Assembly (NCBI RefSeq): GCF_024223415.1
Contig: NZ_CP100500.1
Reading direction: 5' to 3' (one strand)
From: Escherichia coli
GTDB taxonomy: Bacteria; Pseudomonadota; Gammaproteobacteria; Enterobacterales; Enterobacteriaceae
Length of the DNA: 64,000 nucleotides
Shown here: piece by piece, positions 1 to 12,254 of the stretch
Numbering within the stretch: position 1 is the stretch's first letter
How the letters are laid out: the number at the start of each line of letters is the position of its first letter
Program-made: the position numbers and the translations under genes
Notes under the pieces: model-generated
Told to the model about the DNA's origin: nothing
Database searches by the model: none
The model's input: the letters and a program-made list of their open reading frames with translations, nothing else

Positions 1-72
1 GCGAAGCGCGTAACCGTTGCCCGTCCGGTTGTGTCGCTGTATTCGCCGCCCGTATCCGTCAGGGGGAAACCT

Positions 73-303
73 ATGCACAATAAAACAACACCGGACGCAG
101 CAGAAGAAGCAATGCAAATACTGATACGTGCGCTCGTTGATGTTACCCACATGGTGGAGATTATGGAGAGAAAATCACAGTCGGAGCACGACAAAAGAAA
201 ACTTAAAACAATAAAAATAATTGCCAAAAACTCGCTGATAAAAGTTACAGACATCCTTAATGAGGACATTAAAAGAATCAGGGAGAAAGTGTGTGATGCA
301 TAA
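73..303 (+). CDS. hypothetical small protein of satellite-like element (about 77 aa)
   Basis: ORF 31..303 in track; ATG at 73 preceded by AGGGGG RBS; no recognisable family. Confidence 0.35.
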   Translation: MHNKTTPDAAEEAMQILIRALVDVTHMVEIMERKSQSEHDKRKLKTIKIIAKNSLIKVTDILNEDIKRIREKVCDA

Positions 304-523
304 AATACCTTTTGATGTTCTTATTCATTCTGAAAACGCATTAATCCGTGCAAAGGAAATGGACGCATTACTACTTAAGTTAATTGATGTGCCGGAAAGT
401 GGCGATGAATCTGATTCAATAATGTTTTCTGCCGTGCGTACGCTATTAACGCATGTTATTAATGAATTAAATACAGTGATGGCAATTCACGAGAATAATA
501 AAGCGCAGCACACCGGAGAATAA
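296..523 (+). CDS. hypothetical small protein (about 75 aa)
   Basis: ORF in track; internal ATG at 296 (MHKIPF...) with GGGAGAAAG RBS, overlaps stop of upstream ORF; no recognisable family. Confidence 0.35.
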   Translation: MHKIPFDVLIHSENALIRAKEMDALLLKLIDVPESGDESDSIMFSAVRTLLTHVINELNTVMAIHENNKAQHTGE

Positions 524-528
524 AAACC

Positions 529-828
529 ATGAAAAATAAAAATTCTGGCGTTAATGCCAGCGGCCCCGCTCGGCCTGAATTTATGAACGGCGATATTTAC
601 CGCGACCAGTACGGCGGCACGGTAACGATTAAAGGCGTGGAGGAACGGCGCATCACTTACCGCCGTGAAGGCTACGAATATGATTGCGTGATGCCTGTTT
701 ATCAGTTCCGGCGTGATTTTTCTCTGGTACAGGCAGCGCCCCGCAGTAAACCAACCAGCAGGGAGAAAGCACGCGCCAATATTCAGGAAATAAAAAAGAT
801 GCTTAACGTATTCAGGGGTAAAAAATGA
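529..828 (+). CDS. hypothetical protein (99 aa)
   Basis: ORF in track, stop overlaps start of primase gene (operon-like coupling); no recognisable family. Confidence 0.4.
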   Translation: MKNKNSGVNASGPARPEFMNGDIYRDQYGGTVTIKGVEERRITYRREGYEYDCVMPVYQFRRDFSLVQAAPRSKPTSREKARANIQEIKKMLNVFRGKK

Positions 829-2573
829 AACTGGCACCGAACGTAAAAAAACAGCCGCGTGGAATAAAACACAAAGACACAGAGGTGATTATCTTTGCGG
901 GTAGTGATGCCTGGGCGCACGCGAAACAGTGGCAGGAACAGGACGGCCCCGCATCCGGCGATGATGTGCCGCCTGTGTGGCTCGGGCCAAATCAGCTTGC
1001 TGAACTGGATGCACTGAAAATTGTACCGGAGGGAAAAAAACGCGTAAGGCTGTACAGGGCCGGAGAACTGGATTTGGTGGAGACCAAAAAGATTGGTCAG
1101 AAGCTGGCGGCGGCAGATATTCAGGATGCGAATTTTTACTCTGAAGGAATGCACGGCCAGAAGGTGCAGAACTGGCGGCGCTATCTGAGTGCTGAGCGTG
1201 AAAATATTGCCGCAGGGCTTACCATGCCGGAACAGAAAAAAGCACAACTTTCACAGATGGCAGACAGTGAACGGGCACAGCTTCTTTCTTCCCGCTTTGA
1301 TGGTGTCTGCGTCCATGCAGAAAGTGAAATCGTTCACGTATGGCGCGGCGGGGTATGGTGTCCGGTCAGCACAATGGAACTTAGCCGCGAAATGGTGGCG
1401 ATCTATTCAGAGCACAGGGCCACTTTCAGCAAGCGCGTAATCAATAACGCCGTGGAAGCGTTAAAAGTTATTGCCGAACCAATGGGCGAGCCGTCCGGCG
1501 ATTTGCTGCCGTTCGCCAATGGTGCGCTTGACCTGAAAACGGGGGAATTTTCCCCGCACACGCCGGAGAACTGGATCACCACGCACAACGGCATTGAGTA
1601 CACGCCACCAGCACCAGGGGAGAATATCTGCGACAACGCGCCAAACTTTCATAAATGGCTTGAGCACGCAGCCGGAAAAGACCCGCGCAAGATGATGCGT
1701 ATATGTGCCGCGCTGTACATGATTATGGCGAACCGGTACGACTGGCAGATGTTTATTGAGGCCACCGGAGACGGCGGGAGCGGCAAAAGTACATTCACAC
1801 ACATAGCCAGCCTTCTGGCAGGGAAACAGAACACGGTAAGCGCTGAGATGACATCGCTTGATGATGCTGGTGGGCGTGCGCAGGTTGTCGGGAGTCGGCT
1901 TATTGTCCTGGCAGACCAGCCGAAATATACAGGCGAAGGAACGGGCATCAAGAAAATCACGGGCGGAGACCCCGTGGAAATAAACCCGAAATATGAGAAG
2001 CGTTTTACGGCGGTAATCAGGGCGGTGGTGCTGGCTACCAACAATAACCCGATGATATTCACCGAACGGGCCGGAGGTGTGTCACGTCGTCGCGTAATTT
2101 TCCGTTTCGACAATATCGTCAGTGAGGCTGAAAAAGACAGGGAGCTACCGGAAAAGATTGCGGCTGAAATCCCTGTCATTATCCGCCGCTTGCTGGCGAA
2201 CTTTGCCGACCCTGAAAAGGCACGGGCTTTACTCATTGAACAGCGAGACGGTGATGAAGCTCTGGCAATAAAGCAACAGACGGATCCGGTTATTGAGTTT
2301 TGCCAGTTTCTGAATTTTCTGGAGGAAGCGCGCGGCCTGATGATGGGCGGCGGCGGTGACTCTTCCAGGTACACGACCAGAAACAGCCTTTACCGCGTCT
2401 ATCTGGCGTTTATGGCGTATGCAGGCAGGAGCAAACCGCTAAACGTAAATGACTTTGGCAAGGCTATGAAGCCAGCGGCGAAAGTTTACGGACATGAATA
2501 TATAACGCGCAGGATTAAAGGGTTTACGCAAACCAACGTGACAACAACAGACGACTGCGACGCGTTTTTATAA
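825..2573 (+). CDS. phage/plasmid primase-helicase, P4/D5 family C-terminal domain with P-loop NTPase
   Basis: 582 aa ORF; Walker A motif GDGGSGKST followed by hydrophobic strand plus acidic Walker B-like LIVLADQ; architecture typical of satellite/PICI pri-rep proteins; iteron cluster immediately downstream. Confidence 0.75.
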   Translation: MKLAPNVKKQPRGIKHKDTEVIIFAGSDAWAHAKQWQEQDGPASGDDVPPVWLGPNQLAELDALKIVPEGKKRVRLYRAGELDLVETKKIGQKLAAADIQDANFYSEGMHGQKVQNWRRYLSAERENIAAGLTMPEQKKAQLSQMADSERAQLLSSRFDGVCVHAESEIVHVWRGGVWCPVSTMELSREMVAIYSEHRATFSKRVINNAVEALKVIAEPMGEPSGDLLPFANGALDLKTGEFSPHTPENWITTHNGIEYTPPAPGENICDNAPNFHKWLEHAAGKDPRKMMRICAALYMIMANRYDWQMFIEATGDGGSGKSTFTHIASLLAGKQNTVSAEMTSLDDAGGRAQVVGSRLIVLADQPKYTGEGTGIKKITGGDPVEINPKYEKRFTAVIRAVVLATNNNPMIFTERAGGVSRRRVIFRFDNIVSEAEKDRELPEKIAAEIPVIIRRLLANFADPEKARALLIEQRDGDEALAIKQQTDPVIEFCQFLNFLEEARGLMMGGGGDSSRYTTRNSLYRVYLAFMAYAGRSKPLNVNDFGKAMKPAAKVYGHEYITRRIKGFTQTNVTTTDDCDAFL

Positions 2574-2860
2574 TTTTTTGTAATTGCTGTCTACCCTGTC
2601 TACCTGAGTAAAGAAAAATACATTTAATTCAGTGCATTAAGTTAGGTAGATAGCCTTTTTTTACTGTCTACCCACTATCTACCCTCTCTACCTGATTTTA
2701 CCAGAATCAGACAGGGAGGTAGACACGGGGTAGATAGTGGATAAAAGCACTCTACCCCGCTGAAAGCCGCGCCATTACTGGCATGAGGGCCACTAAGGTA
2801 GGTAAGGTAGACAAGGGGAGGCACAACTCAAAACTTTTTAAACGAGGGGGTAAAAATAAA
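2574..2860. repeat. iteron cluster, putative replication origin (GTCTACC / GGTAGAC repeats)
   Basis: At least ten copies of 7-mer GTCTACC / GGTAGAC (and variants CTCTACC, GGTAGAT) in both orientations within about 290 bp, directly 3' of the primase gene. Confidence 0.6.
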
Positions 2861-2861
2861 A

Positions 2862-3119
2862 ATGCACACATCAGAAAAATTTAACAATCAGAAGAAATCA
2901 CATAACCGCGCCATTGACCTTACAGAGCACTGGCTGAGGGTGGCGATAAAAATCATCGACCGCAACGCGGGAGAAGGATACGCGAAAGCACATCCCGAAC
3001 TGATAAGCGCATTCATGACCACAGCGGCGGCAAACTTTGCCACGTTGACAGAACGGGAGATTGCCGAAGCGGAACAGGTGACAACCATCAATGTTAAAAC
3101 CGGAGAGCAGACAGCATGA
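2862..3119 (+). CDS. hypothetical protein (85 aa)
   Basis: ORF in track with GGGGG RBS upstream; stop overlaps next gene start. Confidence 0.4.
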   Translation: MHTSEKFNNQKKSHNRAIDLTEHWLRVAIKIIDRNAGEGYAKAHPELISAFMTTAAANFATLTEREIAEAEQVTTINVKTGEQTA

Positions 3120-3526
3120 CAGCACAGATAGCGGCTTACGGGCGGCTGGTGGACGACCCGCAGACAAAACAGACCAGCAAGGGAACACCGATGACGCTGG
3201 CACGTATGGCGGTATCGCTGCCATGCAGCCAGGCACAGGATGGACAGGCGACGTTATGGCTATCGGTCATCGCATTTGGTAAGCAGGCCGACTTCCTGGC
3301 TAAACATCAAAAAGGCGACGTTGCCAGCGTATCCGGCACGATGCAGGTCAGCCAGTGGACCGGACAGAACGGGGAAACGCGGCAGGGTTATCAGGTTATT
3401 GCAGACAGCGTAATCAGTGCCCGTGCGGCACGTCCTGGCGGGAACAGACGCAAAACCACAGGCACACAGGGTAATCAGCCACCAGCGGGAGGCGATGACC
3501 CTTACGGTGATGATATTCCGTTCTGA
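3116..3526 (+). CDS. single-stranded DNA-binding protein (SSB-like, OB fold with acidic DDIPF tail)
   Basis: 136 aa; N-terminal OB-fold-like region, Gly/Pro/Gln-rich linker and C-terminal ...DDPYGDDIPF characteristic of SSB tails. Confidence 0.6.
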   Translation: MTAQIAAYGRLVDDPQTKQTSKGTPMTLARMAVSLPCSQAQDGQATLWLSVIAFGKQADFLAKHQKGDVASVSGTMQVSQWTGQNGETRQGYQVIADSVISARAARPGGNRRKTTGTQGNQPPAGGDDPYGDDIPF

Positions 3527-3536
3527 GGGGGTGACG

Positions 3537-3809
3537 ATGGTACATGACCGGATAGCGGAGGAACTGGAGGCGAAAGGATTTTACCGGAGGGCGGCCGCGC
3601 GATGGGGTGAAGTTATGAGGCTGGTGAGCACTGACAAGGAGCGCGAACAGGTGGCAATGCGACGGCTGGAATGTTCACAGAAGGCACAGAGGCCACCGGA
3701 GCCGCCGGATGATTTAGGCGCTCTGAAAAGGTCAGTTAATCGCACTGAAAAACAAATGGGGATAGCTGGTATTGGCAAAGCAATATGGCGCAACTACCCG
3801 CAGAAGTGA
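3537..3809 (+). CDS. PerC-family-like transcriptional regulator (about 90 aa)
   Basis: Internal ATG at 3537 with GAGGGGG RBS; sequence MVHDRIAEELEAKGFYRRAAARWGEVM resembles N-terminal signature I recall for PerC/Pch-like activators; assignment from memory only. Confidence 0.45.
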   Translation: MVHDRIAEELEAKGFYRRAAARWGEVMRLVSTDKEREQVAMRRLECSQKAQRPPEPPDDLGALKRSVNRTEKQMGIAGIGKAIWRNYPQK

Positions 3810-3816
3810 GCACACA

Positions 3817-3839
3817 GCCGGAGCAATCCGGCTTTTTTG
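3817..3839 (+). terminator. rho-independent terminator
   Basis: GCCGGAGCAATCCGGC hairpin followed by TTTTTT. Confidence 0.6.
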
Positions 3840-3844
3840 CACCC

Positions 3845-3890
3845 AAAAAAAGCCCGATAAGTACAGGAGGCATCTTATCGGGCTTTTGCA
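3845..3890. terminator. second hairpin, possibly bidirectional terminator
   Basis: A-run, AGCCCGATAAG ... CTTATCGGGCT inverted repeat, then T-rich. Confidence 0.45.
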
Positions 3891-3966
3891 TATGAGGTTT
3901 TTTTTGGTGCACTGACACACATGATCGGGATAATCATTTCATAATTTGCAACGTAACTCAATATTG

Positions 3967-3994
3967 TTGCGCAAAATGCAATCATGATTATAAT
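3967..3994 (+). promoter_or_regulatory. sigma70-like promoter (-35 TTGCGC, 16 bp spacer, -10 TATAAT) upstream of capsid module
   Basis: Consensus -10 TATAAT at 3989-3994 with -35-like TTGCGC at 3967-3972; followed by perfect 8+2+8 palindrome CTGGATGAACATCCAG at about 4001-4016. Confidence 0.45.
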
Positions 3995-4050
3995 CAGGAC
4001 TGGATGAACATCCAGTTATGATTTTTTAAGTCAAAGAGGAATTTCTGACT

Positions 4051-4257
4051 ATGGCAGAAGAGAAAAAAGGCGGGGTGACGGTCTACATAAGCCCCGACAT
4101 CGTGGAGGCGCTCAAGGAACGCCACCAGCAGAATGTAAAAGCAGGCATTGCGGCAGGACTTGATCCGCTGGCGATGGTTGAGCCGTCAACAGGCTGGCAG
4201 GTGCGTACCTATTTACGTGCGGCGCTGGGTATCAATCAGGTTCACGGAGGTGAATAA
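4051..4257 (+). CDS. hypothetical small protein (68 aa), first gene of capsid module
   Basis: ORF in track with AAGAGGAA RBS; stop overlaps start of major capsid gene. Confidence 0.45.
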   Translation: MAEEKKGGVTVYISPDIVEALKERHQQNVKAGIAAGLDPLAMVEPSTGWQVRTYLRAALGINQVHGGE

Positions 4258-5312
4258 TGACAGGCAAAGCAACGGCACTTACAACTAACCAGCTTTTCGC
4301 GTACCTGAATCGCGGGGATATTTCGGAATTAAAATTCAGTCCGCTGTTTACCACGCTGTTTTTCCCGAACGTGGCGACCTTCAACACCCAAAACATCATG
4401 CTGGACACCCTGGACATTGAAGAGGTTACGATGTCAGCGTTCTGTTCGCCTATGGTGGGTAGTCAGGTCCAGCGCGATAAAGGGTACGAAACCAGCACAA
4501 TCAAACCTGGCTACATGAAGCCAAAGCACGAAATCGATCCAACAAAGACCATCATGCGCATGGCTGGAGAAGATCCGGCACAGCTTAACGACCCAACCTA
4601 TCGCCGTATGCGCCTGATTACTGGCAACATGCGCCGCCAGGTAAACGCCATTAAAGCGCGTGTTGAATGGCTGGCGGTGAATGCGGTAACGACCGGAAAA
4701 AACATCATTGAGGGCGAAGGCATAGAACGCTATGAAATCGACTGGAAAATACCGGAAAACTGCATCATACAGCAGGCCAGTGGTAAAAAATGGTCCCAGC
4801 AGGATAAAGACATGCACGACCCAATCTATGACATCGAGCTTTATGCTGATCAGGCAGGTTGCCCCGCCAACGTCATGATTATGGGCGGTGAGGTATGGCG
4901 CACATTACGCAGCTTTAAAAAATTCCGTGAACTGTACGATCTTTCCCGTGGATCAGAATCCGCCGCCGAGCTGGCCTGTAAAAACCTGGGCGAAGTGGTG
5001 AGCTTTAAAGGCTATCTTGGTGATCTGGCCCTTATCGTCTATTCCGGCAAATACACTGACAGCGACGGCACCGAAAAATATTTCCTTGAGCCTGATTTGC
5101 TGGTCCTGGGTAACACCAATAATAAAGGGCTGGTGGCATATGGTGCGATTATGGATCAGGAAGCGGTAAGAACGGGCGCAACGCAAAACATGTACTACCC
5201 GAAAAACTGGATTGAGGACGGCGATCCGGCGATTGAGTACGTGCAGACGCACAGCGCACCGCAGCCGGTACCGGCAGATATTCGCAAATTTGTTACCGTC
5301 AAAATTGCTTAA
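4257..5312 (+). CDS. major capsid protein, lambda gpE family
   Basis: 351 aa; segments FSPLFTTLFFPN and PGYMKPKHEIDP match lambda gpE (FDPLFLRLFFRES, PGYVKPKHEVNP) as I recall it; similar length (341 aa) and conserved C-terminal block. Confidence 0.8.
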   Translation: MTGKATALTTNQLFAYLNRGDISELKFSPLFTTLFFPNVATFNTQNIMLDTLDIEEVTMSAFCSPMVGSQVQRDKGYETSTIKPGYMKPKHEIDPTKTIMRMAGEDPAQLNDPTYRRMRLITGNMRRQVNAIKARVEWLAVNAVTTGKNIIEGEGIERYEIDWKIPENCIIQQASGKKWSQQDKDMHDPIYDIELYADQAGCPANVMIMGGEVWRTLRSFKKFRELYDLSRGSESAAELACKNLGEVVSFKGYLGDLALIVYSGKYTDSDGTEKYFLEPDLLVLGNTNNKGLVAYGAIMDQEAVRTGATQNMYYPKNWIEDGDPAIEYVQTHSAPQPVPADIRKFVTVKIA

Positions 5313-5323
5313 CGGGGGATTCT

Positions 5324-5659
5324 ATGGACGCTCCATATATTGAGTTATTTGCAGGCAGCCAGCAGGTATCCACGACGCTGGTACATTTTGCCGCTGATGC
5401 TGGCGTTATTCAGGAATTTACCCCGCTGATGCTGGCAGACAATGGCGAGTTTAAGGCGTGGGATGGTCAGGAATCTGGCAAAGCTGTTTATCTGACTTCG
5501 CACCCCGTGGACACGTCAAAGCAGAAATCAGCACAGTGTTACAAAACGGGGATATTCAATATTGCCGCCGTTAACTGGCCTGACAGCGTCGACACCGATG
5601 CGAAAAAATGCGCCGCCTTTGCGGGTTCCGGCGTATCCGTTCAGCCGCTGGCCCGATAA
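5324..5659 (+). CDS. head decoration protein, lambda gpD family
   Basis: 111 aa; TPLMLADNGEFKAWDG and YKTGIFN...AAFAGSGVSV match lambda gpD (TPLMLDTSSRKLVAWDG, YKSGTF...TAFAGTAISIV); same size as gpD. Confidence 0.7.
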   Translation: MDAPYIELFAGSQQVSTTLVHFAADAGVIQEFTPLMLADNGEFKAWDGQESGKAVYLTSHPVDTSKQKSAQCYKTGIFNIAAVNWPDSVDTDAKKCAAFAGSGVSVQPLAR

Positions 5660-5671
5660 GCAGGGGGAACG

Positions 5672-6085
5672 ATGGCAACGAATGAAAGTATCATGACGCT
5701 ACCGCTGGCGAGTAAATTTAAAGCCGAAGCGCGGGCAATGGCTGACAGAGGTTTATCAACCTACGAGGCCATACACCGACTAAACAAACTGGAAGAACAG
5801 GACAAGCCGCGCGCTGATGCGATTATGGCGCTTCATGAATCTGACGACTACCAGCCGCTGTTACGTGCAATGGCTAACGTGCCTTGTATCGATGTTGGTA
5901 CGGCTAAAAGCATCCTTAGCATGACCATAGAGCAGGAACGCCCGAAGGTTGCACCAGAGCTTACTTCAGCCTTTGAAAACTTTATGGACATGCACAGCCC
6001 GAAAGCCGTATCAGCTGGCATGGCATACGATGGCAGAACCCCGTGCGATGACGGCGACATCGACCGCATACTGAAAACCATCTGA
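5672..6085 (+). CDS. hypothetical protein (137 aa) of capsid/packaging module
   Basis: ORF in track with GGGGGA RBS; no family recognised. Confidence 0.45.
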   Translation: MATNESIMTLPLASKFKAEARAMADRGLSTYEAIHRLNKLEEQDKPRADAIMALHESDDYQPLLRAMANVPCIDVGTAKSILSMTIEQERPKVAPELTSAFENFMDMHSPKAVSAGMAYDGRTPCDDGDIDRILKTI

Positions 6086-6091
6086 GACAAG

Positions 6092-6115
6092 GCCGGAGAA
6101 ATCCGGCTTTTTTTG
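6092..6115 (+). terminator. rho-independent terminator
   Basis: GCCGGAGAAATCCGGC hairpin followed by TTTTTTT; same terminator module as at 3817. Confidence 0.6.
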
Positions 6116-6200
6116 CGGGTCCTTTCCGGCATGTGGACCCGTTACGGGGCGTCGACCTCGCACGTTTTCGCTATTTATGACGTTTTTCCGTGAAGGTGAC
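6110..6200 (+). other. lambda-type cos site 1 (cosQ-like, cosN GGGCGTCGACCT at 6147-6158, downstream segment)
   Basis: GGGTCCTTTCCGG...GTTACGGGGCGTCGACCTCGCACGTTTTCGCTATTTATGA closely matches the lambda cos region as I recall it (ACGGGTCCTTTCCGG...GTTACGGGGCGGCGACCTCGCGGGTTTTCGCTATTTATGAAAATTTTCCGG). Confidence 0.7.
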
Positions 6201-6247
6201 ACCACCACCACTTGATTAATATTTAACCATGTAGTTAAGGTAACATT

Positions 6248-6682
6248 ATGATTGATAAAGCTTGTTTTGTAAGTCAGCAGGAAATAGCTGAACATTTCAA
6301 TGTTAACAGAACCACTATTCGCGCATGGACCAAACAGGGGATGCCGTATCTTAATGCGGATCGCGGAAAGTCTGGCGGTTATCACATCGGGCATACATTG
6401 TTTTGGTATTCAGGTAAAAGCCATCTTCAGACCATCGGATATCACGTAGAAACCAGTGCGCTGGAAAAAATTATGTTTGCCAGGCTGCTTTCATCTGAGC
6501 GTGACGAGTACTCCAGTGAAGAAACAGAACATCGATTTGATGAAGGTTTGCAGATTTACGGCTATTCACCGGAAGATGTGAGCAAGGCACGAAATAAAAT
6601 GGCTGGCTTTCTGGCTGGGTGGCGTCATGCCGTAAGCGTTCGCCGTGCCAGCATGGAGCAATCAGCCGATACAGAACAGTAA
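6248..6682 (+). CDS. terminase small subunit, lambda Nu1-like (N-terminal winged HTH)
   Basis: 144 aa; QQEIAEHFNVNRTTIRAWTKQGMPYL...HTLFWYSGK aligns with lambda Nu1 KKQLADIFGASIRTIQNWQEQGMPVL...AVIKWYAER; about 90 bp downstream of cosN-like site as in lambda. Confidence 0.7.
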   Translation: MIDKACFVSQQEIAEHFNVNRTTIRAWTKQGMPYLNADRGKSGGYHIGHTLFWYSGKSHLQTIGYHVETSALEKIMFARLLSSERDEYSSEETEHRFDEGLQIYGYSPEDVSKARNKMAGFLAGWRHAVSVRRASMEQSADTEQ

Positions 6683-6729
6683 AGCCGATAACTTGTTAAT
6701 CACGCGCAGCAATGCGTGTGATTTTTGCA

Positions 6730-6850
6730 CACTTCCGGTTAACGGGTACGATGTCCGGTTTGTTTGTACATTTTTTGCACATGTCCGGTTCGCAGAAAGC
6801 ATGTTTTTATATTTTTCAGATAGTTAACTTGCAGAGAAACCGGACATGGA
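6730..6850. repeat. repeated TGTCCGGTT motifs (putative cosB-like terminase small-subunit binding sites)
   Basis: CACTTCCGGTT (6732), GATGTCCGGTT (6759), CATGTCCGGTT (6790) direct, and AACCGGACATG (6839) inverted. Confidence 0.5.
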
Positions 6851-6935
6851 TCCCGAAAAATTTTCATAAATAGTGAAAACGCGCGGGTTCGACGCCCCGT
6901 AACGGGCCATAATTCCAGAAGGACCCGACGACACC
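6830..6935 (-). other. lambda-type cos site 2, inverted relative to cos site 1
   Basis: Reverse complement reads GGGTCCTTCTGG...CCCGTTACGGGGCGTCGAACCCGCGCGTTTTCACTATTTATGAAAATTTTTCGGG, paralogous to site at 6110-6200 and to lambda cos. Confidence 0.65.
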
Positions 6936-6960
6936 AGACTATCAGAGCGATGGGGGCACA

Positions 6961-7242
6961 ATGACAGAAGCCGAACTACTGGGATTAATCCGCCGCGTTA
7001 CCGGAATCAGCCAGCAGCATGACGAACAGGCCACGCAGCCGGACAGCGTGACCGCCGAAAATTATGTGCGTGTTGTTGCGGAGGTGATGCGCCGTGACGG
7101 TATTGAGCTTAACGGCGTGGATATGCGCGACATACGGATCCGCGTTCTGGAAATGCTGGCATACCGTCGCCGCGTGCAGACGTACAGGGAAAAAGCAAAA
7201 ATAACGTACCACTGGAAGAAGCCGGAACGACTGCGTACGTAA
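6961..7242 (+). CDS. hypothetical protein (93 aa)
   Basis: ORF in track; weak RBS; last ORF of element before repeat-rich end. Confidence 0.3.
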   Translation: MTEAELLGLIRRVTGISQQHDEQATQPDSVTAENYVRVVAEVMRRDGIELNGVDMRDIRIRVLEMLAYRRRVQTYREKAKITYHWKKPERLRT

Positions 7243-7366
7243 TACGTACGGACATCGAGATAACGCAAAATTGCGCTGGCTACATCCCTCACATCTGAGG
7301 ACTGATAACAAGCTGCCTGAAAGACAGTCACAAACTACGAAATTTTCGCAGTTTAATTAATGGTCA

Positions 7367-7670
7367 GCTTAATCGCTAACCCGCTGATATTTTCGGAAAC
7401 ATCAATTTGAGGAAGTCGGCGCGGTAACTCGCTGAACTTAAAGCAAAGCGCAAAATTGCGCTGATTACTGGTTGGAATTGTTCCAGAGTGCAAATTTGCA
7501 CTCTGGCCTAACCCGTTGATTATTTCGAAAACCTGCAATGCAGGAAATCGGGGAAGTAAGCCTAAGCTATTGATTGTTTCGAAAACCACCATTGGGGGAT
7601 GTCGGGAAAGTAAGACTAACCCATTGATTCTTCCACAATCCTCAATGTGAGGAGGCCGGACATCGTGACA
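7367..7670. repeat. four imperfect direct repeats of about 54 bp (CTAACCCNTTGAT...GTAAG), three in tandem
   Basis: Units at about 7373-7427, 7507-7560, 7562-7615, 7616-7670 share CTAACCC(G/A)(C/T)TGAT ... TCGG..AAGTAAG and each contains a short internal inverted repeat. Confidence 0.6.
7483..7506. promoter_or_regulatory. 24-bp perfect palindrome CCAGAGTGCAAATTTGCACTCTGG
   Basis: Perfect dyad symmetry seen directly; nearby related inverted repeats GCGCAA-AA-TTGCGC at 7448-7461 and CGCAA-AA-TTGCG at 7264-7275. Confidence 0.5.
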
Positions 7671-7954
7671 GAGCGTGACAACCAGGTAACTAATCTCGCT
7701 GGTGGGCGTGATGTCGATATGGTGATCCCCATAACGGGTTATCCGTGATCATCCACCAGCTTCATGGCAGATAGCCGGAAAATGATAACGGTTAAGCAAA
7801 ACTGCCAGCAAATTTCCCTTTTGTTTGTTATTGTTCGTCGTTGTTCGTAGAGCTTCAACAAAATGTGTGGTCAGTTGTGTGGTCAGTTTTGAGGTTTTTA
7901 ATTCTTATGTGCTGAAAAACTTATTAATTATCAACTGATAACAAAAATTAGTAA

Positions 7955-8048
7955 GAAATACCCGTATCACCTGATCTGGATAATGCCAGCGTAGGGAAGT
8001 CACGGACCACCAGGTCATTGCTTCTTCACGTTATGGCAGGAGCAAACT
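7955..8048 (+). promoter_or_regulatory. 3' portion of thiM TPP riboswitch (thi-box) and expression platform; 5' half of aptamer absent
   Basis: GAAATACCCGTATCACCTGATCTGGATAATGCCAGCGTAGGGAAGT matches the well-studied E. coli thiM aptamer 3' half from memory; expected upstream GGGGTGCCCTTCTGCGTGAAGGCTGA is replaced by AT-rich unrelated sequence. Confidence 0.6.
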
Positions 8049-8837
8049 ATGCAAGTCGACCTGCTGGGTTCAGCGCAATCTGCGCACGCGTTACACCTTT
8101 TTCACCAACATTCCCCTCTTGTGCACTGCATGACCAATGATGTGGTGCAAACCTTTACCGCCAATACCTTGCTGGCGCTCGGTGCATCGCCAGCGATGGT
8201 TATCGAAACCGAAGAGGCCAGTCAGTTTGCGGCTATCGCCAGTGCCTTGTTGATTAACGTTGGCACACTGACGCAGCCACGCGCTCAGGCGATGCGTGCT
8301 GCCGTTGAGCAAGCAAAAAGCTCTCAAACACCCTGGACGCTTGATCCAGTAGCGGTGGGTGCGCTCGATTATCGCCGCCATTTTTGTCATGAACTTTTAT
8401 CTTTTAAACCGGCAGCGATACGTGGTAATGCTTCGGAAATCATGGCATTAGCTGGCATTGCTAATGGCGGACGGGGAGTGGATACCACTGACGCCGCAGC
8501 TAACGCGATACCCGCTGCACAAACACTGGCACGGGAAACTGGCGCAATCGTCGTGGTCACTGGCGAGATGGATTATGTTACCGATGGACATCGTATCATT
8601 GGTATTCACGGTGGTGATCCGTTAATGACCAAAGTGGTAGGAACTGGCTGTGCATTATCGGCGGTTGTCGCTGCCTGCTGTGCGTTACCAGGCGATACGC
8701 TGGAAAATGTCGCATCTGCCTGTCACTGGATGAAACAAGCCGGAGAACGCGCAGTCGCCAGAAGCGAGGGGCCAGGCAGTTTTGTTCCACATTTCCTTGA
8801 TGCGCTCTGGCAATTGACGCAGGAGGTGCAGGCATGA
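8049..8837 (+). CDS. thiM: hydroxyethylthiazole kinase
   Basis: 262 aa ORF, recognised ThiM sequence; overlaps thiD start. Confidence 0.95.
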
Positions 8838-9634
8838 AACGAATTAACGCTCTGACGATTGCCGGTACTGATCCGAGTGGTGGTGCGGGGATTCAGGCCG
8901 ATCTTAAAACCTTCTCGGCACTTGGCGCTTATGGTTGCTCAGTTATTACTGCACTGGTGGCGCAAAATACCCGTGGCGTACAGTCGGTGTATCGCATTGA
9001 GCCTGATTTTGTCGCCGCCCAGCTCGATTCGGTGTTCAGCGATGTGCGAATCGATACCACTAAAATCGGTATGCTGGCGGAAACCGATATTGTTGAAGCG
9101 GTGGCAGAACGGTTGCAACGTTATCAGATCCAAAACGTGGTACTCGACACCGTTATGCTGGCAAAAAGCGGCGACCCGCTGCTTTCACCTTCGGCGGTTG
9201 CTACGCTGCGCAGTCGATTATTGCCACAGGTTTCATTAATAACGCCAAACTTGCCCGAAGCTGCCGCCTTGCTCGACGCGCCACACGCGCGCACCGAACA
9301 GGAAATGCTGGAACAAGGGCGATCGCTGTTGGCGATGGGCTGTGGCGCAGTGCTAATGAAAGGTGGTCATCTGGATGATGAGCAAAGCCCGGACTGGCTG
9401 TTTACCCGCGAGGGTGAACAACGGTTTACCGCACCGCGCATTATGACCAAAAACACCCACGGCACTGGTTGTACACTCTCTGCGGCGTTGGCTGCACTAC
9501 GCCCGCGCCATACAAACTGGGCTGACACCGTACAGGAGGCAAAAAGCTGGCTTTCATCGGCGTTAGCCCAGGCCGACACGCTGGAAGTTGGTCACGGTAT
9601 TGGTCCGGTTCACCACTTCCACGCCTGGTGGTGA
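8834..9634 (+). CDS. thiD: hydroxymethylpyrimidine / phosphomethylpyrimidine kinase
   Basis: 266 aa ORF, recognised ThiD. Confidence 0.95.
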
Positions 9635-9689
9635 GCACCGTACTATAGCTGCTTTGGTTATTGTCAGCCTTTGGCACTGACATTCAGGG

Positions 9690-10517
9690 ATGAAACCAAT
9701 GCAGCTAAGAATTACCAGTCGAAAAAAACTCACCTCTCTATTATGCGCTCTTGGGCTAATTTCCATCGTTGCAATTTATCCGCGTCAGACGGTGAATTTT
9801 TTCTATTCGACAGCAGTTCAGATTACAGACTACATCCACTTCTACGGTTATCGCCCGGTTAAATCTTTCGCTATTCGCATTCCTGCCAGTTACACCATTC
9901 ACGGAATAGATGTTTCGCGCTGGCAGGAGCGGATCGACTGGCAGCGGGTGGCAAAAATGCGCGACAACGGTATCCGCTTACAGTTTGCTTTTATTAAGGC
10001 GACGGAAGGCGAAAAGCTGGTGGACCCCTATTTTTCGCGTAACTGGCAACTAAGCCGCGAAAATGGCCTGCTGCGTGGGGCGTATCATTATTTCTCCCCG
10101 TCGGTATCCGCTTCAGTTCAGGCGAGATTATTTCTGCAAACGGTGGATTTCTCACAAGGCGATTTCCCTGCCGTGCTGGACGTAGAAGAACGGGGAAAAT
10201 TATCGGCAAAAGAATTACGCAAGCGGGTAAGTCAGTGGCTAAAAATGGTCGAAAAAAGTACGGGGAAAAAGCCGATTATTTACTCAGGAGCCGTTTTTTA
10301 TCACACCAATCTGGCGGGCTATTTCAATGAATATCCGTGGTGGGTGGCTCACTACTATCAACGTCGTCCGGACAATGACGGAATGGCCTGGCGCTTCTGG
10401 CAGCATTCCGACCGTGGACAGGTAGATGGCATCAATGGTCCGGTGGATTTTAATGTATTTAATGGCACGGTGGAGGAGTTGCAGGCATTCGTTGATGGGA
10501 TTAAAGAAACGCCTTAA
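9690..10517 (+). CDS. yegX: glycoside hydrolase family 25 (lysozyme-like) protein
   Basis: 275 aa; N-terminal hydrophobic segment; GH25-like region (IHGIDVSRWQ...); conserved position next to thiD. Confidence 0.8.
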   Translation: MKPMQLRITSRKKLTSLLCALGLISIVAIYPRQTVNFFYSTAVQITDYIHFYGYRPVKSFAIRIPASYTIHGIDVSRWQERIDWQRVAKMRDNGIRLQFAFIKATEGEKLVDPYFSRNWQLSRENGLLRGAYHYFSPSVSASVQARLFLQTVDFSQGDFPAVLDVEERGKLSAKELRKRVSQWLKMVEKSTGKKPIIYSGAVFYHTNLAGYFNEYPWWVAHYYQRRPDNDGMAWRFWQHSDRGQVDGINGPVDFNVFNGTVEELQAFVDGIKETP

Positions 10518-10568
10518 ATAAGAAGCAGTGATATACTCCCACCAGACTCCCCGGCAGGAAAAAGACAA

Positions 10569-11315
10569 ATGGAACAAGCGCATACCCAGCTGATTGCCCA
10601 ACTGAACGAGCGTATTTTAGCGGCGGATAACACGCCGCTTTATATTAAGTTTGCCGAAACGGTAAAAAATGCCGTGCGCAGCGGGGTGCTGGAGCATGGC
10701 AATATTTTGCCCGGTGAGCGTGATTTAAGTCAGTTAACCGGCGTTTCGCGCATTACGGTGCGCAAGGCGATGCAGGCGCTGGAAGAAGAGGGTGTGGTGA
10801 CGCGTTCGCGCGGTTACGGCACGCAGATCAACAACATCTTCGAATACTCGTTGAAAGAAGCGCGAGGTTTTTCTCAGCAGGTGGTATTGCGCGGGAAAAA
10901 GCCCGATACGCTATGGGTTAACAAGCGTGTCGTGAAATGTCCCGAAGAAGTCGCGCAGCAGCTGGCGGTCGAAGCAGGAAGTGATGTCTTTTTGCTTAAG
11001 CGTATTCGCTATGTCGATGAAGAAGCGGTATCGATTGAGGAATCGTGGGTTCCGGCGCATTTAATTCATGATGTTGATGCCATCGGGATTTCACTTTATG
11101 ACTATTTCCGCAGCCAGCACATTTACCCACAACGTACGCGTTCCCGCGTTAGCGCCCGGATGCCAGATGCCGAGTTTCAGTCACATATTCAGTTAGATAG
11201 CAAAATACCGGTGCTGGTGATCAAGCAAGTGGCGCTTGACCAACAGCAACGGCCTATTGAATACAGCATTAGCCACTGTCGCAGCGATCTATACGTTTTT
11301 GTGTGCGAGGAGTAG
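10569..11315 (+). CDS. yegW: GntR-family transcriptional regulator
   Basis: 248 aa; N-terminal GntR-type HTH, UTRA-like C-terminus. Confidence 0.85.
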   Translation: MEQAHTQLIAQLNERILAADNTPLYIKFAETVKNAVRSGVLEHGNILPGERDLSQLTGVSRITVRKAMQALEEEGVVTRSRGYGTQINNIFEYSLKEARGFSQQVVLRGKKPDTLWVNKRVVKCPEEVAQQLAVEAGSDVFLLKRIRYVDEEAVSIEESWVPAHLIHDVDAIGISLYDYFRSQHIYPQRTRSRVSARMPDAEFQSHIQLDSKIPVLVIKQVALDQQQRPIEYSISHCRSDLYVFVCEE

Positions 11316-12254
11316 TTCCTCGCGCGTTGGCGCACAATCACCGCCCCGATGCCCGACAACCCACGACGCCACTGCATTGCCCAGTAATACGGCATCCGCC
11401 AGTGGCAGACCAGAGGCCAGCCCGGCAAGTACGCCACCGGCATGACTGTCGCCCGCCCCAATGGTGTCGACAACTTGCGTTGGAAATGCCGGAATGCAGC
11501 CAGAAGCGTCGTTGCTGAAATACCATGCGCCTTCTTTATCGAGACGAACGATCAACGGCGCGGCAAATTTCTCCTGCCATTGTTTGCCAAGTGTTGTTAT
11601 CTCTGCGGATAAAGCAAAACGTTCGGCGGCAATCTCAGCCTCTTGACGATTGAGCGACACTAAAGGTCGACAGGCCATGATCCGCGCCAGTAATGCATCC
11701 GGGATATCGCCAATACGTGGGCCAAAATCGATAAACGGCGTCACGTCTTGCAGCTTTTCCAGCCATTCCACTAATAATTCGCCGCAGGGCGAGGCCAGTT
11801 GATAACCGGAAAAATAGAGCAGGCTGCCAGGCGCAACGGTTAATCGCGCCAGACACTGGCGATTCCACTGATTTTCCACACCGCTGAATGACATAAAAGT
11901 GCGTTCGCCATCCGGCTCAACCAGCGCCAGACACCAGCCGTTATCACCTTCGGCGTTATCGATCAGGCTGATTAAGCCCTCTTTTGCCATCCGGTTGCGA
12001 ATAATCTCCGCCCACACGCCCTGACCGAGCGGCAAGGCATTACCCGCTTCGATGCCGAGGCGCTTTAACGCCACGGCAATATTCAGTGCGCAGCCGCCAA
12101 CGTTAACGCTCTGCTGTTTCAGTTCGATATCGCACCCACGCCAGGGGAGGGCATAAGCGTCGGCGATCACGTCAATGACCGCCGCGCCGACGACCATCAC
12201 CGACTGACGCGTGGTTAATTCAGGCAGCAGCGTGTGTAATCGAGCGCCGCTCAT
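11289..12254 (-). CDS. yegV: PfkB-family sugar/nucleoside kinase
   Basis: 321 aa; PfkB motifs (GGCALN, DTIGAGD); conserved synteny. Confidence 0.85.
   Translation of the reverse strand: MSGARLHTLLPELTTRQSVMVVGAAVIDVIADAYALPWRGCDIELKQQSVNVGGCALNIAVALKRLGIEAGNALPLGQGVWAEIIRNRMAKEGLISLIDNAEGDNGWCLALVEPDGERTFMSFSGVENQWNRQCLARLTVAPGSLLYFSGYQLASPCGELLVEWLEKLQDVTPFIDFGPRIGDIPDALLARIMACRPLVSLNRQEAEIAAERFALSAEITTLGKQWQEKFAAPLIVRLDKEGAWYFSNDASGCIPAFPTQVVDTIGAGDSHAGGVLAGLASGLPLADAVLLGNAVASWVVGHRGGDCAPTREELLLAHKNV

Follow-up and report, generated by a model that had tools for sequence, protein, structure and literature searches.

Introduction

The Gram-negative phage-inducible chromosomal island (PICI) EcCICFT073 of Escherichia coli CFT073 (O-island 51 type; Fillol-Salom 2018, 2019) undergoes helper-dependent induction, packaging and high-frequency transfer (PMC6092414). 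The helper phage induces the island gene alpA, AlpA turns the island on, and int and pri are needed for its excision and replication (PMC6092414). The island protein RppA is no terminase subunit: as a dimer that imitates the DNA-binding domain of the helper's small terminase (TerS), it binds TerS and retargets it to the island cos, the L51D mutation abolishes this binding, and the RppA-TerS heterocomplex, which recognises the cosB of cos1 and no longer that of the phage, blocks phage packaging and promotes packaging of the island (PMC6739421). Transfer of EcCICFT073 by lambda and phi80 needs cos1 (PMC6092414, PMC6739421) and likewise requires helper TerS, whereas neither transfer nor interference depends on the island's capsid and decoration genes (PMC6092414). 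Here we describe an element that occupies the left 8 kb of a 64,000-nucleotide stretch of E. coli DNA (contig NZ_CP100500.1; the whole stretch is hereafter called the window) and show how it compares with this model island.

A further copy of the EcCICFT073 satellite family

We searched 5,426 complete E. coli genomes by megablast and found that EcCICFT073 matches the window at ~91% nucleotide identity across positions 498-7226/7235, or ~6.7 kb. EcCICFT073 and its relatives cover 84-87% of the query at about this identity and in identical gene order, and 31 of the 5,426 genomes, all CFT073 assemblies among them, reached at least 80% query coverage. In CFT073 the order runs int, alpA, small open reading frames (ORFs), DUF4222, pri, the origin, an 85-aa gene, ssb, perC, a 68-aa gene, capsid, decoration, and genes for proteins of 137, 144 and 93 aa; from DUF4222 onward the window is the same gene for gene, with cos1 before RppA and cos2 after it (Table 1).

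Beyond this near-identity and co-linearity with the model island, the window carries a pri-rep gene with an iteron origin directly behind it, an Rpp protein that combines a Nu1-like winged helix-turn-helix (wHTH) with its own dimerisation helix, cos sites with helper-like cosQ and cosN and a different cosB, and, throughout the visible 8 kb, unidirectional genes that include none for a portal, large terminase (TerL), tail or lysis. Positions 1-7967 thus very probably make up two thirds of an EcCICFT073/Rpp-type Gram-negative PICI, whose left-hand third lies off-window. The left 8 kb is a further copy, or allele, of a known and experimentally characterised satellite family and no new kind of element; as a whole, the locus matters little, being one more copy of a family carried by roughly 1% of the complete E. 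coli genomes.

An earlier note on this DNA, written from the letters alone, had described a satellite-like element that combines a replicase of P4 type and an iteron origin with homologues of lambda E and D, a Nu1-like protein and a pair of cos sites. The ORF list and family searches bore out every gene, the iterons and both cos sites at their positions and supported the satellite reading. The note was also right that the element runs left past position 1, where the relatives carry int and alpA. It had called the pairing of lambda E/D proteins with a P4-type replicase unusual; this is instead the standard layout of the EcCICFT073 family, and 21 of the 29 reference Gram-negative PICIs have a capsid gene (PMC10111431).

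The window copy differs from EcCICFT073 in its integration module and site (roxA/phoQ in CFT073, the thiM riboswitch in the window), in ~700 bp of additional repeat-rich DNA in the right arm (7243-7953) and in its PerC protein, which is only 66% identical; the order from DUF4222 to the 93-aa ORF, the two convergent cos sites and the iteron origin after pri are shared. At its attachment (att) site, right arm and attR core the window copy instead agrees with the PKF11 PICI (NZ_CP156706), which lies between rcnR and thiM and whose Pri, SSB, PerC, capsid, decoration and Nu3-like proteins are 95-99% identical to those of the window. Unlike the window, the PKF11 island has a 180-aa annotated small terminase in the rppA position, 21% identical to the window RppA. 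It carries int, alpA and attL and measures 11.6 kb from att to att, the size expected of a Gram-negative PICI being ~10-20 kb.

Other satellites share some traits with the window. Capsid-forming PICIs (cf-PICIs; EcCIEDL933 type; Alqurainy et al.) have the same int-alpA-rep backbone and likewise encode a major capsid protein, but their gene set extends to a portal, protease, head-tail connectors, TerS, TerL and HNH, and they form small capsids of their own; we rejected this assignment, as no ORF in 1-7950 matches portal, protease, connectors or TerS plus TerL/HNH (PHROGs, NCBIfam). The Ccm protein of the cos-packaged island SaPIbov5, like the window protein, is encoded by a satellite and homologous to the HK97-fold capsid protein of the helper; it redirects capsid size and brings about interference, whereas deletion of the EcCICFT073 homologue affects neither. 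With P4 the window shares a primase domain of the P4 family and cos packaging that relies on a helper, but the layout differs, P4 is helped by P2, and a P4-like satellite was rejected because the primase domain alone is common to both and no ORF matches a sid, psu or delta family (PHROGs). The authors of the PICI work treat PICIs and P4 as separate lineages (PMC6092414).

RppA and the cos sites

The gene between the two cos sites had been read in the earlier note as a Nu1-like TerS. The Nu1-like N-terminal wHTH stood up, with 15 of 48 residues identical to lambda Nu1 over the N-terminus only; the function did not, since the protein is an allele of RppA, 95% identical to that of CFT073, which hijacks the helper TerS rather than replacing it. 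It also matches the RppC structure (PDB 6HLK) at E 1.6e-33, and both the TerS-contact residue L51 and F121 are conserved in the window copy.

Compared with CFT073, the window rppA has seven nonsynonymous and no synonymous differences: six substitutions in residues 52-64, beside L51, plus K18N, which the window copy alone carries among 11 RppA alleles. The window allele reads N18, F52, Y54, H59, Q61, T62 and G64 at these positions. Across these alleles six of the 10 variable residues are 52, 54, 59, 61, 62 and 64 (codons 52-64 span 6401-6439), in mixed combinations, although the alleles are a small sample drawn from the best BLAST hits and the clustering is a lead only. Diversifying selection on helper specificity would produce such a pattern; variation beside the TerS contact is the expected product of an arms race with helper phages, and it suggests alleles of interest for helper range.

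The two cos copies form a 70-nt inverted repeat, 79% complementary, that flanks rpp. Both align with lambda cosQ, cosN and the adjacent segment and diverge at lambda cosB, exactly as in CFT073; at cos1 a non-lambda cosB then extends to the rpp start. One cosN change, G6T, is common to the two copies, and cos2 carries two further changes. The cohesive ends of the window copy would consequently differ from those of lambda by one base at cos1 and by three at cos2.

From the rpp stop codon to cos2 (6700-6860) lie several CCGGACAT / ATGTCCGG and TTTTTGCACA..TCCGGTT repeats, of which the CCGGACAT repeats are cosB-like. These may be R-element-like binding sites, standing where the cosB of the inverted cos2 would sit.

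A conserved capsid-related cassette

Upstream of cos1 lies a four-gene cassette (68-aa protein, gpE-like, gpD-like and Nu3-related), intact in every relative examined, in each of which the 68-aa gene precedes the capsid gene. The similarities to gpE and gpD that the earlier note had proposed were upheld in database searches, with lambda gpE (7VI9) and phage 21 SHP (1TD0) among the matched structures (Table 1). The capsid homologue is 43% identical to lambda gpE and 95% to its CFT073 counterpart, and is essentially the same protein as 3BQW, the crystallised CFT073 "putative capsid protein of prophage"; the decoration protein is 36% identical to a lambdoid D protein and likewise 95% to its CFT073 counterpart. 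None of 375 matching phage records exceeds 47% identity to the capsid protein, which, judged by these alignments, belongs to a long-separated, satellite-specific clade. Ratios of nonsynonymous to synonymous substitution (dN/dS) for the capsid gene, 0.09 against CFT073, 0.13 against STEC434 and 0.06 against PKF11, are among the lowest in the island and indicate strong purifying selection.

The 137-aa ORF that follows matches the C-terminus of phrog_53, the head maturation protease/scaffold family (E 1e-7), and tblastn aligns it with a lambdoid C/Nu3 polyprotein at residues 416-493 (36% over 83 aa). A 195-aa bridging protein, P0008, links it further to the phage family, matching the 137-aa ORF (E 1e-5), phrog_1999 (E 1e-41) and lambda Nu3 (E 2e-16). 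These matches indicate a protein related to the lambda scaffold Nu3. The earlier note, correct in that portal, protease, TerL, tail and lysis genes are all missing from 1-7950 (ORF list, PHROGs), had therefore gone too far in listing the scaffold with them. The family is narrow (nine representative clusters in an exhaustive phmmer search), and a search of the accessible literature found no paper that pairs a PICI with Nu3. NCBIfam gave no match for any protein of the cassette, and neither the 68-aa nor the 137-aa protein has a significant Pfam family.

In the PKF11 island the cassette is joined to a different packaging gene, that of the 180-aa annotated TerS. We also observed the same 68aa-capsid-decoration-Nu3'-cos-rpp-cos cassette in an island of E. 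coli Ch1 (NZ_CP127316, L006 1-9200), which has a RepA-family helicase instead of the P4-type primase and an added ProQ/FinO-family gene, indicating that the cassette moves as a module.

Weighing the alternatives

Several observations weigh against assigning the window copy to the EcCICFT073/Rpp type with all that this implies. No identical or near-identical island is present in the 5,426 genomes, the closest reaching 94% identity over 82% of the query or 90.9% over 87%, and the cos-rpp-cos module finding its best match at 98.1%; function is therefore extrapolated from a relative that is 91-95% identical. The window reaches none of int, alpA and attL, on which the completeness and mobility of this copy would depend. 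The cosN of lambda and EcCICFT073 is GGGCGGCGACCT, from which window cos1 (GGGCGTCGACCT) is one base off and cos2 (GGGCGTCGAACC) three. The helper range may differ from that of the model island, because six RppA positions beside L51 have changed, and no helper prophage is obvious in the window's ORF list, in which the ORFs are unannotated.

The same genes can be read as a capsid-forming satellite, whose own gpE-, gpD- and Nu3-like proteins would form heads peculiar to the satellite and possibly small; from the helper it would borrow the portal on which they are built, TerL and tails, and nothing else. The earlier note had favoured this view, and we consider it very improbable. The intactness of the cassette, the low capsid dN/dS (0.06-0.13), the distance of the capsid clade from any phage capsid protein (at most 47% identity) and the scaffold-related gene alongside all speak for it. 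The islands tested in the published work were, moreover, marked with tetA in c1501 or with cat replacing c1499, and DNA size was examined with lambda, not with a native helper (PMC6092414); judging from locus-tag order, c1501 is probably the Nu3-like gene. Against these points, deleting c1499 (capsid) or c1500 (decoration) from EcCICFT073 neither relieved interference with lambda nor reduced transfer from resident prophages, c1499::cat islands transferred at up to 1e6 per ml, and the packaged island DNA was phage-sized (PMC6092414). The genes downstream of the origin, c1503 excepted, did not inhibit lambda when expressed (PMC6739421), and genes for portal, protease and head completion, which true cf-PICIs have, are missing from 1-7950.

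A narrower proposal, that the 68aa-gpE-gpD-Nu3' cassette has a real capsid-related function that published work missed, strikes us as unlikely, if worth keeping in view because the published markers sat in c1501 or c1499 and DNA size was taken with lambda as helper, and because the cassette is intact in relatives with a conserved capsid gene of a separate clade. Its proteins might co-assemble into helper heads or remodel them, form small heads when the helper is a native one, or poison lambdoid phages that are not helpers. A Nu3-related gene beside capsid and decoration homologues, together with the strong conservation of the capsid, sharpens the question of what the cassette does, a question that concerns the whole family rather than this locus.

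A lambdoid origin fares worse. Four genes and the cos are homologous to lambda, which would suit a defective lambdoid prophage retaining E, D, part of Nu3, cos and a degenerate Nu1, but the lambda order is Nu1-A-W-B-C/Nu3-D-E and that of the window E-D-Nu3'-cos-rpp-cos, a non-lambdoid arrangement already remarked on in the earlier note. In company with PICI int/alpA/pri modules, the same compact cassette is found at several sites in the chromosome, every gene is intact and shows purifying selection, and the model island is experimentally mobile (PMC6092414), which together make such a remnant scarcely credible. Nor does the segment lie inside a full lambdoid prophage, as the earlier note had also held: thiM-thiD-yegX follow on the right, and the PKF11 island at the same site abuts rcnR. 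We rejected a lambdoid prophage accordingly, having found not the order Nu1-A-W-B-C/Nu3-D-E-FI-FII-tail but rpp-cos followed by attR and thiM.

Proposed course of induction and packaging

For a PICI of the EcCICFT073/Rpp type, we propose the following sequence, each step of which is inferred for the window copy from experiments on the 91-95% identical EcCICFT073. A lambdoid helper phage would switch on the island's AlpA activator and the island would excise, after which Pri-Rep would fire the iteron origin at 2590-2811, aided by the island's own single-stranded DNA-binding protein (SSB). The RppA dimer would then capture the helper small terminase (Nu1) through its mimic of the Nu1 DNA-binding domain, so that the RppA-TerS complex would no longer recognise the phage cosB and would bind the island cosB beside cos1. 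Helper TerL would cut the lambda-like cosN, and island concatemers would be packed into helper-made, phage-sized heads with helper tails while phage packaging is blocked. By our own arithmetic, four copies of an island of 11.6 kb (the PKF11 length) come to 46.5 kb, close to the 48.5 kb of the lambda genome.

Insertion into the thiM riboswitch

The element was very probably integrated between rcnR and thiM by a tyrosine integrase whose gene would lie off-window to the left. The alignment to other E. coli genomes that the earlier note had called for placed the insertion in the aptamer of the thiM thiamine pyrophosphate (TPP) riboswitch: identity to the E. coli chromosome begins at 7954 in essentially all genomes, more than 5,400 of them, and comparison with an empty site (UMNK88) and an occupied one (PKF11) defined a 14-bp attR core at 7954-7967, AGAAATACCCGTAT, which is repeated at the PKF11 attL. 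The right end, earlier put near 7950, is thus at 7953, or at 7967 with the att core. This attR junction is common to 75 of the 5,426 complete genomes. To its right the ordinary chromosome resumes, first with thiM, thiD and yegX, then with further genes, and the related PKF11 island abuts rcnR at the same site. The att site is not a tRNA gene, as a tRNA scan of the window was negative.

The TPP aptamer, annotated in the empty site of UMNK88, scores 71.2 bits there and 36.4 bits in the window (Rfam gathering threshold, 54.3). Its 5' half and the native thiM promoter were left at attL, more than 11 kb away (window 7880-8014; L004 1465-1561; L003 4870-4915). This integrase type thus targets the thiM TPP riboswitch and splits the aptamer, and thiMD may be deregulated in carriers; RNA folds of the interrupted and intact thiM leaders were not decisive on exposure of the Shine-Dalgarno sequence.

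Close to this junction, a ~70-nt segment with a tandem TGTGTGGTCAGT probably represents integrase arm-type sites. The same segment occurs near both ends of the PKF11 island, including beside attL upstream of int (L003 5001-5070).

Other features of the island

Table 1. Positions and supporting evidence for the features of the element (window coordinates)
Feature	Position	Strand	Evidence
Two small overlapping ORFs	31-303 (90 aa), 260-523 (87 aa)	+	phrog_5146, phrog_2196, both function-unknown families
DUF4222 protein, 99 aa	529..828	+	phrog_285, E 3e-31; DUF4222 annotation in relatives
Pri-Rep, P4-family primase / D5-type helicase replication initiator, 582 aa	825..2573	+	phrog_864, E 8e-168
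Replication origin, 10 TCTACC/GGTAGA iterons, both orientations	2590..2811		directly 3' of pri
Conserved 85-aa protein	2862..3119	+	phrog_1231, E 1e-47
SSB	3116..3526	+	phrog_44, E 2e-40; TIGR00621 above cut-off
PerC-family transcriptional activator, 90 aa	3537..3809	+	Pfam PF06069, E 1.2e-38, full length
Terminator-like hairpin after perC	3816-3833		terminator scan
Conserved 68-aa protein, first cassette gene	4051..4257	+	phrog_3255, E 9e-36
gpE-type HK97-fold major capsid protein homologue, orthologue of c1499	4257..5312	+	PDB 3BQW, E 3e-229; lambda gpE 7VI9, E 9e-81
gpD/SHP-type head decoration homologue, orthologue of c1500	5324..5659	+	phrog_49, E 1.5e-27; PDB 1TD0 (phage 21 SHP), E 5e-13; lambda gpD, E 4e-9
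137-aa Nu3 (scaffold)-related protein	5672..6085	+	phrog_1999, E 6e-62
Hairpin and T-run after the 137-aa ORF	6092-6114		read from sequence
cos1: lambda-like cosQ, cosN GGGCGTCGACCT (6147-6158), adjacent conserved segment	6124..6193	+	one mismatch to lambda cosN
rppA allele, 144 aa, Nu1-like wHTH and own dimerisation helix	6248..6682	+	95% identical to CFT073 RppA/c1503
cos2, inverted relative to cos1; cosN GGGCGTCGAACC on the minus strand, 6886-6897	6851..6920	-	70-nt inverted repeat with cos1
Conserved 93-aa protein	6961..7242	+	phrog_1561, E 2e-56
Four copies of a ~54-nt repeat, each with a small hairpin	7374-7427, 7506-7559, 7560-7613, 7614-7667		repeat search
~70-nt arm segment with tandem TGTGTGGTCAGT x2	7821..7890		tandem repeat
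attR core, 14 bp, AGAAATACCCGTAT; right island junction within the thiM TPP riboswitch aptamer	7954..7967		alignment

Pri-Rep shares 90-95% amino-acid identity with PICI pri genes, with dN/dS of 0.11-0.18, and scores 109 bits against TIGR01613 (cut-off 108.7). The origin that follows occupies the same position, 3' of pri, as the functional one of EcCICFT073 (PMC6092414); of the window's 33 TCTACC/GGTAGA hexamers, 10 fall in these 222 bp (2590-2811), the chance expectation for the whole 64 kb being 13.6. SSB is 98% identical to that of CFT073, with dN/dS of 0.09-0.37.

At the left edge, the two small ORFs lie in the same order as small ORFs that precede DUF4222 in CFT073, STEC434 and PKF11, and alignment of the first 200 bp to relatives was uninformative. 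Eight small ORFs gave no match to the PADLOC defence models; the 85-aa protein has no NCBIfam or PADLOC match, and the 93-aa protein no significant Pfam or PADLOC match. An Rfam scan of 1-12000 returned nothing beyond the truncated TPP aptamer and, over the iterons, a miRNA match due to chance. The island of PKF11, which occupies the same att site, carries a C4 antisense RNA (68.5 bits) and its a1/b1 target within an icd-like region (L003 8275-8479); Rfam found no C4 antisense RNA in window 1-600.

In the right arm, the repeats at 7374-7667 match no Rfam family and contain no ORF with a family match. The ~54-nt copies share a conserved frame, CTAACCC.TTGAT..TTTCGAAAAC ... TCGG..AAGTAA, within which the hairpin stems differ from copy to copy (for example, CCTGCAATGCAGG and CCTCAATGTGAGG), and further palindromes lie at 7264-7283 and 7449-7468.

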